From positions 1,110,001 through 1,142,000 of the forward strand of contig JAXLZO010000001.1 in assembly GCA_046350815.1 (NCBI GenBank): DNA of 32,000 nt, in the 5' to 3' direction. A model generated the notes under the pieces. The model had not been told where the DNA came from, did no database searches, and worked only from the letters and a program-made list of their open reading frames with translations. Origin of the DNA: Candidatus Saccharimonadota bacterium (GTDB lineage: Bacteria; Patescibacteriota; Gracilibacteria; BD1-5; UBA2023). Both the position numbers and the translations under genes were made by a program. Below, in pieces: positions 1,170-25,641 of this stretch; the stretch's first letter is position 1; every line of letters starts with the position of its first letter.

Positions 1170-1193
1170 AAGTAACTCATATACTCTCTTCTT

Positions 1194-1904
1194 ATGATCC
1201 CATACAGCAAAATATCAGTTCACGAACTTAAAAAGATTATTAAGTGCTTTTGTGTGGATATTGATGCCACAAAAACAAGCGAGCTTTTGGGATATAATCG
1301 AAAGACCGTTAACCATTATTTCTCTATCTTTAGGAAAATAATCTACACGAATCGTATTGAGGCTTTCAAAGAAAAGATAGGTTGAGAAATAGAAGTAGAT
1401 GAAAGCTATTTCTGAGCCAAGCGAAAAAGATGATTTGCAGGAAAACTTAAACGATGAAGATGAACCCTCAAACAGCCAGTATTTTGACTCATCAAGAGAA
1501 AAGATGAGAATGGAAGAGTAGAAATATATACAGAGATTATTCCGAATTGCAAAGCTGTAACACTCCGCCCTATAATACAGGGAAAAGTCAGTATAGAAGA
1601 TTCTATCCTATATTCGGATGGCTGGAAGGGATACGATGGTCTCGTAGATGTATGAATCGACAAGCACTTTCGAGTCAACCATGGTACAAGTGAATTCTCA
1701 CTTGGGAATGGAATTCACATCAATGGGATTGAGAACTTCTGGAGTTTTACAAAGCGCCGATTGAACAAGTTCAACGGCGTGAAAGTAAACTTTCACCTTC
1801 ATCTCAAAGAATGTGAATGGAGATATACCAAAGAAAGCTTTGAACTTGAGCAGGAACTTCTTACAATGATTAAAATCTTTTATAAAAAATCCAGAAAATC
1901 TTAG
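1194..1904 (+). CDS. IS1595-family (ISXO2-like DDE) transposase, 236 aa, with 7 in-frame TGA=Gly codons
   Basis: Table-25 translation: MIPYSKISVHELKKIIKCFCVDIDATKTSELLGYNRKTVNHYF...KIGGEIEVDESYFGAKRKRGFAGKLKRGRGTLKQPVFGLIKRKDENGRVEIYTEIIPNCKAVTLRPIIQGKVSIEDSILYSDGWKGYDGLVDVGIDKHFRVNHGTSEF...HINGIENFWSFTKRRLNKFNGV...LKECEWRY. The family hallmarks (VDESYFG, GKxKRGRG, PVFG, TDxWxxY, HxxVNH, NxIExFW) are all present. TAG stop at 1902-1904. Confidence 0.9.
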
Positions 1905-4499: not shown

Positions 4500-4860
4500 A
4501 AGGAAAGCTCTTCTACATTCGTACTATTTTACTTGAATACAAAAGAAGAAGGATCGAAAAATAATTACAAATAGGAAAAGTGAGAGTCAAGCGAAAGAGT
4601 TTGCTTTTTGTTCTCAAGCGTCGATAATGTTCATGTTTCGCTCGTCCGTGCATCTGGCTATTATTTTTTCTCATCAAACCATTGCTCAGGAGAGAAGATC
4701 GCGAGAGGGTGACGGCTTCGTCCTCATCCGCACTTCTCAACAACATCATCCGTGATTTCGAATAATGTTGATTACGCTCCATGAGATACAAAAATCTAGT
4801 CAAAACGGCGAGAAAAATCAAAACTCTTCAGAAATGGAGAGTTTTGTGTTACTACAAATC
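4500..4860. other. Unassigned spacer with a GC-rich hairpin core: candidate structured ncRNA or a small leaderless ORF (ATG 4782, minus strand, 89 codons to TAG at 4513)
   Basis: On the minus strand there is a long irregular hairpin, GAGAAG-UGCG-GAU-GAG-GACG-AAGC-CGUC-ACC-CUC-U-CGCG-AU-CUUCUC (about 4692-4738). A second stem is CAACAUUAU...AUGAUGUUG (about 4742-4771). An AU-rich hairpin AAAACTCT-N10-AGAGTTTT lies at 4821-4846. I found no conserved motif of any known RNA family. Confidence 0.3.
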
Positions 4861-4889: not shown

Positions 4890-4918
4890 TTGCATAGATG
4901 TTCAGCTTAGAGTATGAT
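4890..4918 (+). promoter_or_regulatory. Putative sigma70-type promoter of the giant ORF (TTGCAT-17 nt-TATGAT)
   Basis: -35 TTGCAT at 4890-4895, a 17-nt spacer, and -10 TATGAT at 4913-4918. The ATG at 4929 is only 10 nt downstream, implying a very short leader or none. Confidence 0.35.
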
Positions 4919-4928
4919 AACAAAAAAT

Positions 4929-7900
4929 ATGCCAAAAAATATCAACACTCCGACAGGTAATCAAGAATCACAACTTGAGGATTTTCTCACAAACAAAAGC
5001 GAGAGGATGAATACCTTTCGTAATTTTTTCTATAACTACAGTGATACTCAAGCATGATCTGCTTTTTTACGAAACGAGGGTCATAAGGCATTCAGCGGAG
5101 CCATGAATACCAATGTACTTTTTGTCGCATATTTTGAGTCACTCAAAAAAACAAATCCATACACCAACCCGGCAAATGGAGCAGGGCTCACTGACCAAGG
5201 AAAAACTGATGTACAAGACAATATAGCAAATGTGAACAAAAATGAATTTGAATCACTCGTTTATTCGCAACACAATCTTCTTTTGAGACAAGAATCACAT
5301 CTTCTCACAAAAATCGAATCATGGTATGCGGTAGATACACCTGGTCACCTCACGAGAGTACAAGTATGATTAGAGGTAAAAAAACTCAATCTCAAAGAGA
5401 TCAATACCGCCATCTACTCATCATCCAGACTCACGAACCTCATTAATACATGGCACAAAGCAAGTACAACTCATGACTACAATTTTCAAGGTCATAAGAA
5501 AAAAATGATCGATGATATTGCAGCAATTACTGGAATACCTGCAACTGATACAAATCTCACAGATATATACAATCGTCTCACTCGAGAAGAGAATGCTGAT
5601 GTAACTAATCTTGAAAAAATTCTCGGAAATATTGACGGACTCACTCCTGATCAGAAATTCAATATTCTCGCCATCATCAAGCCAACCATTTCACTACGGG
5701 AATATCGCACTATTGCTGCAAAACACAATGGCGGAACACTCAAGGATGATGATGAGATTATAGATAATATCATCAATGCTCATCCAGCAGTACCACCACT
5801 CACGCCAGATCAAAAGGCTCTTATTAGAACAAGAATATTAGCTACAATCGATCAGAATGGAGATATCATTCGTATACCACTTTCACAAATTAGAACCCAA
5901 AGACCAACAGATTATCTGAATATCCTTCAAGAAACGACCGAAGAGGCGCTCGGAACTATAGCAGATAAGAAAAAGAGAGAATCAACCCTTGAAAAATTCG
6001 ATCAACGTGAAATTGGAGCAAAACATACCGAGCGAGATAAAGATATCAAAGTAAATCTTGATGATGAGCTTGAATCTCTCAAGACACAAGGTGAACAGAA
6101 TTTTGCACAACTCAAAGATGCAGGAATCAATGCAGATAGTCATGATCAAATACTGAACGCATTTATCATGAGACTTAGTGAACTAAAAATCGATCAAGCC
6201 CAGAAAATAAAAAATCTCACCGCGAGTCCTCCGTCAAAACTCTACATCATTTATCGAATGGGTGGAGTTAATCAATATGTAGAAATAACAGCCTACAATG
6301 GCAACGCTACACCAATACCAACAATCCGATGTATCAATCACACTAATGTTGATGGTGAATACTATGCAAATAAGCATGCTACTGATGTACCAATTGACAA
6401 AATCGCAAAAACCATCTCCCGTGCTGATCGATGAGAGGGATGAAAAGATAATTTCATAAAAAAAGGTGAAAGTGGCTGTGTTGTGGAAGAATCTTTTGTA
6501 CAAGACTTAGTGAATAGAGGTGTACTCAAAGAAAATATTCAAGATGGAGAAATGAAACGCGAAGATCTTGAAAAAAAACTCTTTGAGCTCGATGGAGAGA
6601 AAAACAAGCTCGAGCCAGGTCTCCTCATACAAACCATGGATACTGAGGGGAAGCCGATGTTTGTTGAGGTAACTGCGATTGATGAGAATGCAAAAACTAT
6701 CTCTATCAACACCACGATTGATAGTGATAATACCCAAAATATTGTTCATCTTCAATTTCATGAATTTCTCTGAGTATTTAACCGAACACAATGTAGGAGA
6801 GTTTGACTCGCAAAAGATATCAAATCATTTATCGAACTCTGCAAAAAGACACATAAACCTTCGGAATTTGCGAACATCAGCTTAGGAAAAGATGGAAAAC
6901 TGCAATATAAAAATGATAAAGAAAGAGCAGACTATATTGTCGGCTGATTTCGTACTCGTGGAAACAAGCCAAATCATATCATCATAAACGAGATAAGTGA
7001 TACGGGAGTAACATTTATCTATGTCGAGGAGGGTGAACTTGAGAAAGATAAGGACGGGAAAAATACAAATGTCATCAAAACAAAACCAAAGCCAAAATTC
7101 GTCCGAAAATATGAGAATGTATCGCTCAAATTCCTCGCTGATCAGCTCAATTTTCTCCATGACGGGGATTGGCAGACATTCAAAGATGATATAGGTGAAG
7201 AAGCAAAAAAGAGATTAGAAGAAGAGCACAAAAAACACGAACGGGAGAAAAATCACAAACATGAGCACAAACCACACTATCATGGATGACCACTCCAGTG
7301 GATGGCACATTCCAAGAATTTTTGACACCTTTTCAAGGGTATTGGGATGGCATTTGGTGAACTCAAACATTTTATCGAGCACGGAGATGAACATGTAGCA
7401 AAAGAGATGGAATATGCATTCATCTCGTGGATGCGAGATACCCCATGATTCAAGAAATTCATGCCGGAAGAGATTTATCTCGATATGAAGGCAGAAATCG
7501 AATCAAAGAAGAAGAAAGCGATTGATGAGCTCGCTGAGAAATGGGGTGGATTATCCACAGGAGATTGTGGAAATATGGCTGTAGCACTTCTCGCCGATAA
7601 GCATACAACGATGGAACAAATGTTCGGAATTATCTTTGGTATTCACAAAAAGGTTGGAAATCTGTATGGTATACCCATTCTCCAATCAGAGCGTGACCAA
7701 ACACATGTTGATGGTATCGATGATCCCGTGCCAATTTTTCTCTATAAGCTCTGTGTTATTCAGGGAGATGATCCAGTTAAAATGATCAACGAACTACGAA
7801 AAAAATGTGGTAAATGATGAGAGAGAGCTTTTGAAGGCGGTATTGATCCAGTGCCTGAAATGTATCTCATTCAAGTGTATTCACATACGGTACTACAAAA

Positions 7901-9158
7901 CAAGAATCCTCCCCCTGTCCCTGGTTCATTTCATGCCAAGATTGCAGGCGCAGGAGGACCAAATGAGCAGGAGCAAAAAAAGAAAGCAACCGATGGAGAA
8001 GCAGATATGTACTCAACACAGGATCAGATAGAATCTCGGATGTATGCTCTGGCAAAAGATGGAGAGATAGCACAAGCAATAGGATTCTATGAAAGACTCA
8101 TACCTCGATGAGCCCCTATGAGTACGCTCATGGGATTACCATTTATCGTAGCAACAACATGACTGAGAGATTACATGAGTAATCAGCTCGTACGTCAACT
8201 TCATATAAATGGCGTCTACGAACAAGGTTTTTCATCGAGCTTATTCACAGCACTTGAGAGTCAAGATAAATACACGAATTTTCACACACTTCTCAAGGCA
8301 CTTTCAGAAAATGCCTACGAGATGAATGGTGAGGCAATTCTTCCGGATGCAGCACGTACTGATCTTAAAGAGCTCCTAAATGGCACATTCAATGATGTAG
8401 CCGCCGTAGGACGAAAATGAGCGCCAGGCTTTAAAGGAGGGAAAACAATCTTGAATCAAAAGGTAGATCTTGCACAGAAATTCTGGACATCCTATGGTAA
8501 GCGACTCATGCAAGTACTTGATGGAAACGATGATAATCTCCTCCTTCTCCAACAGCAAAAGGGTATTCCATGAGCAGAAGAGCACTTTAAACAAACCAAG
8601 GAACGAACGGAATGACGATCATTTAATGCGAATCTCACGAGCTGGAAGAATGGACACTATAACACGGACAGCACCAACTATACGCTCCTCAACCCAAAAG
8701 AGGCAGCATCAAGTTTTTGATGAGTAAATAACTTAACTGGAAAGTTTAAATCAGATGAGACCTGACAAATGCATGAGAATATTTTTATGTCTTTTCAACA
8801 AGCATTTCAACGTGTTAAAAAAATTAAGGATCCAGAGGTACAAAAGGATAAATTCTTTGAAATGCACTATGAAATACTCAAGAAAATCATGGGGGAACTC
8901 AGTGATGATGTCATCGAGAAATTGATGAAGACAAACAATCATCCAAATTGGTACAGTATGCTACGAAGAACGATTGGATTCAATATCAGAAACTATAACG
9001 CTAATGATGTAAACGGATATAGCGGATCCGAAGATCCAACGTATCGAGCAAAAGCACAAAAAGAACTTGATTTTCTTCTTCAAGGTGGTACCGTAAATAG
9101 TGTTATTGGAAATGTGAGTTGACACACAGGAGCAACGATTAATCCGGCATTTCAATAA
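4929..9158 (+). CDS. Giant orphan protein, 1409 aa, with 21 in-frame TGA=Gly codons; no domain recognised
   Basis: Seven track ORFs (5103, 5505, 6483, 7461, 7851, 8175, 8769) all lie in frame 0. I walked every gap codon by codon and found only TGA, never TAA or TAG, from the TAG at 4908 to the TAA at 9156-9158. In-frame ATGs occur at 4914 and 4929. A hairpin terminator follows immediately. There is no signal peptide. The protein is charged and K/E/D-rich, with internal repeats and a His-rich tract (EEEHKKHEREKNHKHEHKPHYHGG). Confidence 0.8.
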
Positions 9159-9190
9159 GATAAAATCCCTTAATTGTGAGGGATTTTATC
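9159..9190. terminator. Bidirectional rho-independent terminator between the giant ORF (+) and the MFS gene (-)
   Basis: GATAAAATCCCT-TAATTGTG-AGGGATTTTATC. Confidence 0.7.
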
Positions 9191-10388
9191 TTGAACATTT
9201 TGATACAAATATCCATCTGCTTCCAAACATAAATATTCAAAGCAGTACAACAAATACACAAGTTGCAAAGAAAAAAGGAAGGCGAATAGAGTGAGCATAC
9301 ATCATTGCACCAAGAACTGGACCGAGTACATTTGCCGCCCCAGCAAGACTCATATTAATACCCATAATTCGCCCAGACTCATACTCACGACCTATAGTGA
9401 GAAGAGAGTTAATCGTTGGGTTAAGAGTTCACATAGCAATCGGCATGAGTATCATCCATATGTACACCATCCACTCTCTATTCATCAAGGAAAATCATAA
9501 AAATGATATAATGAATAGGAGAAAGGATATCGCAAGTAATGTTTGATGACTACAAAGAGATCGGAGATGTCGGGTAATAGCACCCTGATAAATAATAGAG
9601 GTTAAACCAACTCATGAGAACACCCACGCAATCTCATGAGCATTCATTCCAAATAAATCAGTGTAGTATTGAGAAGAGAGTGTTGTCATGATACTAAATG
9701 CAAAAACTACTCCAGCGGATAAAACAAAAAGGAGAAGAAGTCATTGATCATGGCGAATGAGTGAGGATTTTACAAAATTCTCTACTCTATGTTTGAGAGA
9801 TGGCTGGTGTGTCTCAGGAAGTATAAAATAAATAGAAAGAAGATTGAGAGATGCAGCAACCATCATAACTACCGGTATGCTGATGAGCCCAAATACAACA
9901 GAGAGAAGACCACCAATAAATGGACCTATGAGAAATGCGAACCCAAACGTTGCGCCCATCATACCGAAATATTTTGTTCGTTCTGCTTTTGGAGCAATAT
10001 CGCTAATCATTGCCTGTACCACTCAAAATCATGCTCAACTGACTCAAGCAACCAAGCGAGAAAGGAGAAAAAGTATGACAGCTATATGAAGTGGTACAAT
10101 ACCTAGAAGACTAAGGAGTAAGAGGATAGACCCAAGAGCATTTGCAAAACTCGTCAGAAATATCATTGGACGACGTCACACACGATCAGAAATTCACCCT
10201 ATCCAAAAAGCAACGAGAAATGTTGAGAGTGCATAGAGTGCTTGTGAATATCAAGCCCACTCGCCTGAGAGATGAAGAAATTTGAGGATATCAGGAAGAA
10301 CTGGAAGGAGTACACCAACACCTAAAAGATCGAGGAAAGCAGTAGAAAGAATAACAGGGAAACGATATCGAGTGATGAGATGATGCAT
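9186..10388 (-). CDS. MFS transporter (400 aa)
   Basis: MHHLITRYRFPVILSTAFLDLLGVGVLLPVLPDIL...WIGG(TGA)ISDRVG(TGA)RRPMIF...VVQAMISDIAPKAERTKYFGMMGATFGFAFLIGPFIGGLL... MFS motif A (GxxSDRxGRR) has its conserved Gly encoded by the TGA at 10176-10178. The protein is hydrophobic throughout. TAA stop at 9186. Confidence 0.85.
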
Positions 10389-10473: not shown

Positions 10474-10836
10474 ATGTTCGAAATACCTGTAGGGGAACTG
10501 CTCACAAGCTATGAAGGTGATACAAGATCACTTACATTTCATGATGATGTACCAGAGAATACATGGGATGGTCTTATTCTTAAAGATACACTTGAGCTAG
10601 ATATACAACTTACTCATATCAAGGGTGGTATTGAGGTGCATTTTACAAGATTTGAAACAGTTGCAGATATTGACGGTATCGAATATGAAATAGATATTCC
10701 ACCATTTGAGCGAGTATTTCTTGAGAGAGAAGATATGAACGATCCTGGTTCTCTTGATATTATTCATAGAAAAACTGGAATAATTAACCTCTCTCATGTT
10801 ATACGAGAGGAGATCATTATGGATGCTCATTATTAG
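10474..10836 (+). CDS. DUF177 (YceD-like) family protein, 120 aa (tentative)
   Basis: Intact ORF. Its acidic C-terminal half (...DIDGIEYEIDIPPFERVFLEREDMNDPGSLDIIHRKTGIINLSHVIREEIIMD) resembles the DUF177 pattern. It is shorter than typical family members. Confidence 0.45.
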   Translation: MFEIPVGELLTSYEGDTRSLTFHDDVPENTWDGLILKDTLELDIQLTHIKGGIEVHFTRFETVADIDGIEYEIDIPPFERVFLEREDMNDPGSLDIIHRKTGIINLSHVIREEIIMDAHY

Positions 10837-11021: not shown

Positions 11022-11462
11022 TTAAATTTCTATTTCTGTACCTTCGACATCTTCTTTTCATTGTTGTTCTACATATTTTTTGATGATATCTCCATCTACT
11101 ACTCAGACTGTTGCACAAAAGTATCACACTGCCCAGAGAGATTTCTTTTCTCACCAATAGAAGTTTTTTAGATGAGACTTAAATATTGTATCGGTCCATA
11201 TATGGTGTGAGCTTCTTCATTTAAACATTTGGACTACAAATGGAATTGGATGTACAAGAGGAATACTCAGATATACATGTATATGATCTTCTTCCATACC
11301 AATAGCAATGGGTGTGATGTAGAGTTCTTTGCAGATTCATTCTATGATTCGTTGTACTGATTCTTGAATTGGTTTCGTAAGACATTTTCTTCTATATTTC
11401 GTAATCCATACTATGTGATACCTGCAGTCATAGACAGCATGTGATGCTTTTCGGTACACCAT
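11022..11462 (-). CDS. tnpA: IS200/IS605-family Y1 (HUH) transposase TnpA, 146 aa, with 6 in-frame TGA=Gly codons
   Basis: It is absent from the ORF track because TGAs cut it into pieces shorter than 60 aa. The table-25 translation is MVYRKASHAVYDCRYHIVWITKYRRKCLTKPIQESVQRIIEGICKELYITPIAIGMEEDHIHVYLSIPLVHPIPFVVQMFKGRSSHHIWTDTIFKSHLKNFYWGEKKSLWAVGYFCATVGVVDGDIIKKYVEQQGKEDVEGTEIEI. It shows the HUH motif (HIHVY), KG.SS, LW..GYF..TVG and the catalytic-Tyr region (KKYVEQQ). Element ends could not be defined. Confidence 0.9.
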
Positions 11463-11543
11463 GTTGATTTATATTGAGTCATGTATACACTTGACACTCT
11501 AGTTACAATCGGCTTGAAAGCAAACGGGGTTTTGGACCCAAGG

Positions 11544-24787: not shown

Positions 24788-24851
24788 AGAGAATAATATC
24801 ATACAACTCATTATGCTAATGAAAATGATGATCCACATTTCGTAAATAGAA

Positions 24852-24891
24852 TTGACACTATATATAATATATTTATATTATATATAGTGTC
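24852..24891 (+). promoter_or_regulatory. Promoter overlapped by a 16-bp perfect inverted repeat (candidate operator)
   Basis: TTGACA lies at 24852-24857. The arms are GACACTATATATAATA (24854-24869) and TATTATATATAGTGTC (24876-24891), separated by TATTTA. -10-like TATTAT/TATAAT hexamers sit inside the arms. Confidence 0.45.
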
Positions 24892-24957
24892 CTTGTTAGC
24901 AATAGCAATGAACTTCCAAAACACATTCTCCCGAATACTCGGGAATAGGAGAGCAAA

Positions 24958-25461
24958 ATGTTCGATTCATTGAATTCATTGATCCATCAGGTGAAGCTTT
25001 CTCTCTCGCCCGAATACGCAAGGCAAGAAAAGGAAAAAGAGGTGGTTTCACAAATTTCGGTGCTCGTTCAGAACATTGGCAATGCTAAAAAAATCAAGGA
25101 AATGCTGAATGAGCTGAGCGGTAAAACCCTTGAAACCATTACCAGTATTTTGATTCAAAGTCAATACTTCGAATACAATGACCTCGCTATACATCTCGAT
25201 CCAAGCAAAGCAGGCATCGCCATTGCAGAAGTCATGAAGATGGCACGTGCACACGCCGAACTCTCCGGTCATGGAGATCGAGCTGGCTGGGCAGCAAAGC
25301 GAATTATGTTCGCTCACAAATGGGCAGTGATCGGCAAAATTCTTACCGCATCGCTGGAAACAGAAATCCGCGCAATTGCCACCAAGATTGCATGGGCAAA
25401 AGATGGTTACATCGAGCGCGAAGTGCAGCAGTATTTGATGTGCAACGGATTCATCCGATAA
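24958..25461 (+). CDS. Hypothetical protein, 167 aa; GC-rich compositional outlier
   Basis: Intact ORF with AGGAG (24947-24951) 6 nt upstream of the ATG, its own promoter/operator and its own terminator. Its 3' half is 52-55% G+C by hand count. It has no TGA among 9 Gly codons. I recognise no family. Confidence 0.75.
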   Translation: MFDSLNSLIHQVKLSLSPEYARQEKEKEVVSQISVLVQNIGNAKKIKEMLNELSGKTLETITSILIQSQYFEYNDLAIHLDPSKAGIAIAEVMKMARAHAELSGHGDRAGWAAKRIMFAHKWAVIGKILTASLETEIRAIATKIAWAKDGYIEREVQQYLMCNGFIR

Positions 25462-25550
25462 TGAAGTGCAAATTCTACCTCATCTAACAAACACAGCTTC
25501 CACTCCCCTTCTCAGTATCTGAGATCTGTGATGGAAGCATACAACCACCA

Positions 25551-25588
25551 AAACCTCAACCAATGAATTGGTTGAGGTTTTTCTTATT
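25551..25588 (+). terminator. Rho-independent terminator
   Basis: AAACCTCAACCA-ATGAAT-TGGTTGAGGTTT followed by TTCTTATTT. Confidence 0.65.
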
Positions 25589-25641
25589 TGAGAGAGAGGA
25601 TATTTGATCGTTTTATCTTGATTTCAAAAGTAAAAGGTTCA

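Follow-up and report, generated by a model that had tools for sequence, protein, structure and literature searches.

Does a reading frame that is punctuated by 21 TGA codons encode one large protein or several small ones, and if it is one, of what kind? The question is raised by positions 4929–9158 (+ strand) of a 32,000-nucleotide (nt) stretch of DNA, hereafter called the window, from a genome deposited as Candidatus Saccharimonadota bacterium and placed by GTDB within the Gracilibacteria (assembly GCA_046350815.1, contig JAXLZO010000001.1, positions 1,110,001–1,142,000). An earlier reading of these letters made without database searches, here called the sequence-only reading, had described an orphan gene of 1409 codons hidden by in-frame TGAs. 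All 21 of these codons are found exactly where they had been listed (5055, 5367, 6432, 6441, 6771, 6804, 6945, 7287, 7323, 7446, 7815, 7818, 8109, 8160, 8418, 8571, 8613, 8718, 8721, 8763 and 9120), and the frame is free of TAA and TAG from the TAG at 4908 to the TAA at 9156. Read with genetic code table 11 it breaks up into seven open reading frames (ORFs) of 81–309 amino acids (aa), which all exist in the same frame as described (starts 5103, 5505, 6483, 7461, 7851, 8175 and 8769). Over the same stretch each of the other five frames holds 16–50 TAA/TAG codons. The probability of 1409 codons without TAA/TAG, calculated from base composition, is 1.7e-32, and the longest TAA/TAG-free run among 500 shuffles of the region spans 215 codons. 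When TGA is read through, a single ORF starts at 4929 and yields a product of 1409 aa that is identical to the GenBank call MFO0764296.1. Hereby, the aligned N-termini of orthologs (MANNTNTP and MSSPNTPT) back the start codon at 4929. The gene is indeed hidden under table 11, but not in the public record of the same genome, which annotates one hypothetical protein: an exact-sequence look-up of the 1409-aa product returns "hypothetical protein U0518_05620" from a Candidatus Gracilibacteria metagenome-assembled genome (MAG). The record sits on a contig of 1,283,673 bp, and the neighbouring GreA of the window is MFO0764295.1. A literature search on the accession numbers gave no match, and no second copy (paralog) is present within the window. 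We conclude that 4929–9158 is a single real gene that codes for protein, chromosomal and present in one copy, in a genome of Candidatus Gracilibacteria.

Reading TGA as sense is appropriate for the whole window. Under table 11, ORFs ≥100 aa add up to 21 kb, compared with 84 kb if TGA is sense, in which case long ORFs show up across the entire stretch. YchF, RecR, PcrA, PBP1 and YidC in the window require TGA as sense, and Pfam recognises several neighbours of the gene once Gly is placed at TGA (YidC, GreA, a major facilitator superfamily (MFS) transporter, an IS200-like and an ISXO2-like transposase). The TGA codons in YchF (DIA-x-LVEGA), RecR (HILG-x-S) and PcrA (YG-x-VKFYERKE) occupy positions that we take to be conserved glycines of the respective families. 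When the target is aligned by codon with three orthologs, TGA occurs in 30 columns. The alternative codon is Gly (GGN) in 15 of them, Arg in 4, Ser and Lys in 2 each, and Asn and Gln in 1 each, while TGG (Trp) never alternates with TGA. The window-wide code is accordingly read as genetic code 25 (UGA = Gly), because TGA stands at the Gly positions of YchF, RecR and PcrA and exchanges with GGN, never with TGG. In both respects the target resembles the recoding of Gracilibacteria and Absconditabacteria (SR1), NCBI table 25, from which it shows no difference; it is the known code at work, on which all long genes of the window depend. TGA usage in the gene (14.9 per 1000 codons) falls inside the span of 8–27 per 1000 observed for correctly framed neighbours. 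A tRNA gene search of the 32-kb window found none, and hence no tRNA-Gly(UCA) within it.

Two database proteins of 1410 aa each, deposited as TGA = Trp translations, are 83% and 80% identical to the target, and further family members were rebuilt from contigs by code-25 translation. All ten reconstructed members are intact, and intact orthologs of 1346–1454 aa occur in at least ten independent assemblies (loci L001–L003, L005–L007 and L009–L013). Since the same intact frame recurs in these assemblies, assembly indels appear very unlikely. The ortholog of L007 (1408 aa, NCBI GCA_020632315.1) lies in DNA that is 82% identical to the window across 8.7 kb. Those of L011–L013 are 46% identical to the target, those of L006 and L009 37–38% (G+C content ~46%), and the L005 relative 20%. 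Syntenic homologs were sought and found, the order YidC-(DUF212)-GreA (-) / orphan gene (+) / MFS (-) recurring among relatives. For the whole gene, the ratio of nonsynonymous to synonymous substitution rates (dN/dS) amounts to 0.09–0.13 at dS 0.67–1.24. It is low in every 100-codon window including those across TGA sites and falls to 0.02–0.08 over most of aa 500–1400. By both identity per 100 aa and dN/dS, conservation climbs toward the C-terminus. These ratios indicate that the gene is under strong purifying selection and is neither a chance ORF nor a pseudogene.

In addition, a stand-alone paralog of 601 aa (L004, 572–2377 of ENA ERZ22157953 NODE_7216), from the same source metagenome as ortholog L001, consists of the C-terminal all-alpha module only (41% identical). 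It begins just past the His/HxxEH segment described below; neither the His cluster nor the HxxEH motif is present, and the RNA is missing upstream of it.

The sequence-only reading had recognised no motif that pointed to a known family, and this absence persists in Pfam, NCBIfam, PHROGs, PADLOC, PDB sequences, HMMER and Foldseek. Scans of the target protein with Pfam, NCBIfam, PHROGs and PADLOC returned noise only, the best library matches being TipAS at E 0.18 (12.7 bits; cut-off 23.8) and ATP synthase B at E 0.014 (14.8 bits; cut-off 339), and no family recurs in Pfam scans of six diverse members. Searches of PDB sequences with phmmer and three profiles (one whole-length, two regional) gave nothing below E = 0.6. 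An exhaustive HMMER search of 1.84 billion representative proteins produced 10 matches, all of them members of the family itself or their fragments, and a profile search of 5.8 billion clusters produced 16, again all from the own family. In word-indexed searches new members came from the C-terminal profile only. Relatives were absent from IMG/VR viral contigs, from INPHARED phages and PLSDB plasmids (both by tblastn) and from BFVD structures. Two scans of GTDB representative genomes were likewise negative; they used exact peptide patterns, so absence there is unproven. Every family member found lies in TGA-recoded DNA. Taken together, this points to a small family confined to TGA-recoded relatives, with no matches outside itself in the libraries searched.

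At the level of predicted structure, neither of two AlphaFold2 models gave a Foldseek match below E 0.2 against PDB or BFVD (best E 0.22 for the C-terminal and 0.49 for the N-terminal model; TM-scores ≤0.2), which with low-confidence models is a weak test; the absence of matches is thus weak evidence for a new fold. Alpha-solenoid matches of the C-terminal model were generic and non-significant, and KOW/Tudor-like matches of the beta-rich region (E 0.5–4) were non-significant as well; both were discarded. If we speak of a family outside the known kinds, we mean that similarity to any characterised family appears undetectable by sequence and by these low-confidence models, and not that its mechanism is new.

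The product has the general properties that had been ascribed to it. It is rich in charged residues (K 9.1%, E 7.4%, D 6.5%), its Kyte–Doolittle 19-residue mean peaks at 1.22, in line with the lack of a transmembrane segment, and its polar N-terminus MPKNINTPTGNQESQLEDF shows no signal peptide as judged by hydropathy and eye alone. The His-rich tract HKKHEREKNHKHEHKPHYH is present at 7227–7283. The two models were computed for overlapping halves, aa 1–795 and aa 736–1410, from a Trp-coded relative, which has Trp for Gly at the TGA sites. The first reaches a predicted local distance difference test (pLDDT) score of ~55 and a predicted template modelling (pTM) score of 0.30, the second 63.9 and 0.38, with 319 residues at pLDDT ≥70 in the C-terminal model. 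Three predicted regions can be distinguished (Table 1). The N-terminal one includes a K/E-rich stretch at ~aa 345–430. The middle one carries predicted strand clusters at aa 439–521, 567–595 and 651–730, of which the part around aa 390–530 has pLDDT ~80–90, together with the conserved strings LYIIYR..QYVEITAY, PGLLIQT..FVEVTAIDE.AKTI.INT and DHIII. The C-terminal one contains the motifs FMPxEIYLDMK, KWGxLSTG, TTxEQMFG, YKLC, NPPPVPGSFHAK and DQIExRMYxLAxDGExAQAIGFYER.

A charged linker runs up to the His cluster, in which H778, H780, H783, H785, G786 and G787 (H-x-H-x-x-H-x-H-G-G) are invariant, even in the relative of 20% identity. The helix H-x-I-E-H-x-x-E starts 27 residues after this cluster. 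Its H814, E817, H818 and E821 do not vary among the full-length members; these four, together with W791 and K813, are likewise unchanged in the relative of 20% identity, and H-[FA]-I-E-H is the sole classical motif that all full-length members keep. Identities as NTPase, reverse transcriptase, DEAD-box, CxxC or HExxH protein were dismissed, no such motif being conserved among members, and a Walker-A-like string at aa 86 is missing from relatives. Internal domain duplication was not detected either (hhalign probabilities <1%).

Our best guess is that the orphan protein is a cytoplasmic metal-binding multidomain protein. Hereby, the six invariant His and two invariant Glu would make up a site for a divalent metal at the entrance to the C-terminal module. 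This module would provide the core activity or a binding surface; since constraint is highest here and the module also exists as a protein by itself, it may be regarded as the functional core. The helices of the N-terminal region and the beta-rich middle, in turn, would act as adaptor or scaffold that recruits a macromolecular partner. We place the explanation as a whole, i.e. a single code-25 gene for a constrained multidomain protein with a His cluster and a C-terminal core, slightly on the probable side. That the invariant His/Glu constellation is a metal-binding site seems to us a serious possibility which falls somewhat short of an even chance, and an enzymatic role of the protein is rather doubtful. 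Several observations weigh against this proposal. The idea of a metal site is drawn from the conservation pattern alone, and no homology points to any function. The stand-alone paralog has neither the His cluster nor HxxEH; because it lacks both motifs, the C-terminal module can evidently do without the His site, which argues for a site that is regulatory, structural or needed for the full-length form only, rather than catalytic. Furthermore, AlphaFold2 puts the His/HxxEH segment at pLDDT <50, both models are weak (pTM 0.38 and 0.30) and contain Trp wherever TGA should give Gly, and the lack of a signal peptide was called by hydropathy and eye only.

The spacer between greA and the orphan gene (520 nt) holds a block with the properties of a conserved structured RNA (Table 1). 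This block is ~98% identical to that of close relatives, while their coding DNA is only 82% identical, and it can still be aligned with L006 and L009 with indels of 1–3 nt. The consensus structure (RNAalifold) comprises seven helices. A long one, GUUUCGCUCG/CGGCGAGAAA, closes the structure; further helices are nested, two hairpins are apical, and the terminal hairpin precedes a U-run. In this structure 95% of the cells are paired versus 37–48% with slid partners, and 12 compensatory pairs are counted versus 0–2 in the slid controls. The G-U pairs are compatible with the plus strand only, and the z-scores of sequences folded singly are -4.4 and -3.1. With five sequences from about three lineages, this covariation is suggestive, not conclusive. 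Wherever enough upstream sequence is available, at eight fetched loci as well as in the window, the RNA lies 5' of the gene, which covers four lineages down to 37% protein identity; it is absent upstream of the stand-alone paralog. Rfam reported nothing at gathering score in the window (SpF10 only, 28 bits against a cut-off of 60) and nothing at E ≤10 for the L006 copy.

Table 1. Features of the orphan gene, its product and the upstream RNA (window positions; RNA copies in the positions of their own loci).
Feature	Position	Strand	Basis or remark
Orphan coding sequence, 1409 codons	4929..9158	+	TAA stop 9156-9158; translation equals GenBank MFO0764296.1; orthologs and dN/dS
N-terminal region, aa 1-430	4929..6218	+	predicted helical (AlphaFold2, low confidence); least conserved, dN/dS 0.11-0.24
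Beta-rich middle, aa 431-745	6219..7163	+	three predicted strand clusters (AlphaFold2); family alignment
His cluster HKHEHKPHYHGG, aa 776-787	7254..7289	+	invariant columns in family alignment
HFIEHGDEH, aa 814-822	7368..7394	+	HxxEH motif; family alignment
C-terminal all-alpha region, aa 791-1409	7299..9155	+	predicted (AlphaFold2); most constrained part; from ~aa 820 also stand-alone (L004)
Promoter-like site of the gene, TTGCAT-17 nt-TATGAT	4890..4918	+	positional counterpart in L006/L009
Conserved structured RNA, ~215 nt	4635..4850	+	conservation, RNAalifold, covariation
Promoter-like site of the RNA, TTGCTT-18 nt-TAATGT	4601-4606 and 4625-4630	+	ends 5 nt before first helix
Terminator hairpin and U-run of the RNA	4819-4850	+	
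RNA copies in relatives	L001 2352; L002 1418; L006 7395; L007 6507; L009 7716; L011 3109; L012 3143; L013 1860		

Other explanations of the locus have to be weighed against the one proposed here. If TGA were a stop codon, the frame would represent seven separate small genes or a decaying pseudogene, just as table 11 splits it into seven ORFs of 81–309 aa and as the fragmented annotation of related public MAGs has it. This is countered by 1409 codons without TAA/TAG (p about 1e-32), by purifying selection over the full length and across TGA sites, by TGA/GGN exchange among orthologs, and by the essential window genes YchF, RecR, PcrA, PBP1 and YidC, which need TGA as sense, so that the possibility is effectively refuted. 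A further candidate is a divergent zinc peptidase of the inverzincin (M16-like) type in which HxxEH would be catalytic. The invariant H-[FA]-I-E-H (aa 814–818) is preceded by G-x-x-x-K, and an invariant Glu, E896, follows 78 residues downstream of HxxEH, similar to the distance at which M16 enzymes have their third zinc ligand. However, neither Pfam scans of members at E = 10 nor the profile searches of PDB sequences returned M16, no peptidase is among the Foldseek matches, and the region is predicted, at low confidence, to be helical without the alpha/beta sandwich of M16. The protein thus resembles peptidase M16 in its invariant HxxEH and the Glu ~78 residues downstream, but not in profile, structural similarity or predicted secondary structure. 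It does not belong to the family, and M16 identity was rejected as a shared motif for which profile and fold tests fail; a catalytic zinc site of this kind appears very improbable.

Compared to the peptidase, a role in host interaction is less remote, though still unlikely in our view. The protein would then be either a large scaffold within the cytoplasm for a structure used in attachment or predation, or an effector that type IV pilus or secretion machinery exports non-classically into the host cell. It is large, K/E/D-rich and lineage-restricted, it is encoded in a reduced 1.28-Mb genome of a presumably episymbiotic bacterium, and its C-terminal domain is modular and exists as a separate protein as well. 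Moreover, one Gracilibacteria genome is reported to combine many large proteins suggestive of hostile interactions with abundant pilus and secretion genes (PMC6851277). Typical effectors evolve fast, whereas this gene is under purifying selection, keeps its synteny and occurs once per locus; the protein lacks a signal peptide, a transmembrane segment and any toxin, adhesin or repeat domain, and secretion genes are not adjacent. A functional pair of the protein with the upstream ~215-nt RNA, as ribonucleoprotein or with the RNA as cis-regulator, seems less probable again. In favour of such a pair, the RNA is found directly 5' and on the same strand at all eight fetched loci and in the window, where upstream sequence suffices, it is better conserved than the coding DNA with 12 covarying pairs, and the modelled beta-rich middle gives weak, non-significant KOW/Tudor-like echoes. 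On the other hand, the adjacency may be mere genome collinearity in a region that is syntenic throughout, the RNA seems to own a promoter and a terminator while the gene has a separate promoter-like site, Pfam scans detect no RNA-binding domain, and the stand-alone paralog has no upstream RNA. Such a pair would be specific to one code-25 Gracilibacteria clade and would amount to either a new ribonucleoprotein around a metal-binding protein of no known fold or a new cis-regulator of its gene, a prospect that we rate as distinctly doubtful.

Returning to the proposed metal-binding protein, comparison with known systems further delimits what it may be. The His-rich tracts of metallochaperones such as HypB, SlyD and UreE are usually terminal and variable in length. 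The alternating His of the target (HxHxxHxH) are alike in that they could chelate Ni or Zn, but they are internal, fixed in position, invariant down to 20% identity and placed beside a second His/Glu motif. The family library scans gave no homology to HypB, SlyD or UreE. The attachment organelle proteins HMW1, HMW2 and P200 of Mycoplasma are large, charged, cytoplasmic and lineage-specific, and belong to reduced genomes with reassigned UGA. The target is alike in these traits; the likeness would be one of analogy only, and there is no sequence relationship. Large orphan proteins are common in Gracilibacteria genomes. In one BD1-5 Gracilibacteria genome large proteins are a noted feature, and those highlighted there are mostly secreted or surface-associated, or annotated as toxins or adhesins (PMC6851277). 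Compared to these large proteins of Gracilibacteria and the Candidate Phyla Radiation, the target is equally large and lineage-restricted and is likewise encoded in a small TGA-recoded genome, but signal peptide, transmembrane segment, repeats and toxin domains are all absent from it, and its gene is a strongly constrained core gene in conserved synteny. The view that it is the best candidate in the window for undescribed biology is therefore fair, although the gene is not exceptional given the large proteins noted in that genome (PMC6851277).

Code 25 was already known and the ORF was in GenBank as a hypothetical protein; what appears to be new is a family unlike any characterised one: a conserved family of ~1400 aa with an invariant His cluster and relatives in no library searched. 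The gene takes up 0.33% of a 1.28-Mb genome and is under strong constraint. Lineage-specific core proteins of this kind are among the few handles on the uncultivated, probably host-dependent Gracilibacteria, and the RNA without Rfam match beside the gene is a second concrete lead. The locus also illustrates how the wrong genetic code destroys annotation, since in related MAGs a gene for 1410 aa turns into six or more "hypothetical proteins" of 50–250 aa, and such standard-code fragments pollute protein databases.

As a separate observation, public MAGs labelled Candidatus Peribacteria or Peregrinibacteria hold the ortholog, namely L007 (7388–11014; GCA_020632315.1, JACKFT010000001.1) and L002 (GCA_018061975.1). 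At least for GCA_020632315.1 the annotation used the standard code, and its 1408-aa gene was deposited as many hypotheticals of 50–250 aa, e.g. MCB9804095.1 and MCB9804097.1–MCB9804099.1. The code of these MAGs looks wrong because the genomes clearly use TGA as sense, and so, perhaps, does the taxonomic label.

The flanks of the gene had been described as a promoter just upstream and a hairpin terminator after the stop codon. The promoter motif is present as described (Table 1), but its -35 element matches 3 of 6 consensus positions and it fails promoter criteria. The distant relatives L006 and L009 hold TTGCAC-17-TAATAT at the matching position, and the call appears plausible, if weak by consensus. 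From this site the 5' leader would be very short or absent, with the ATG at 4929. In both promoter-like sites of the spacer, 4601–4630 and 4890–4918, the -35 element begins with TTGC and not TTGAC, as it does in L006 and L009 (TTGCAA, TTGCAC), which hints at a lineage-specific preference that standard promoter scans would overlook. The hairpin at the stop codon is real (9156–9193, 17 bp, -20.5 kcal/mol, z = -6.3) and none of 200 shuffles is as stable, although a simple terminator scan did not report it. The orphan gene (+) and the MFS gene (-) converge on it, and it is bordered 5' by an A-run and 3' by a U-run; it is probably a bidirectional terminator.

Three further observations concern the surroundings. 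Just past the MFS gene, 10474–10836 (+) encodes an acidic hypothetical protein of 120 aa (MFO0764298.1), without a match in a Pfam scan, that recurs with at least 90% identity in at least three other assemblies. Both transposases of the window contain in-frame TGAs, six in the IS200-like Y1 transposase (11022–11468 (-), Pfam E 5.5e-31) and seven in the ISXO2-like/IS1595 DDE transposase (1176–1904 (+), Pfam E 1.1e-22); it follows that these elements either have adapted to code-25 hosts or are restricted to them. Finally, at 24797–25641 both strands are open for ~278 codons with TGA as sense, and a TGA-free ORF (24949–25461 (+)) is nested inside.

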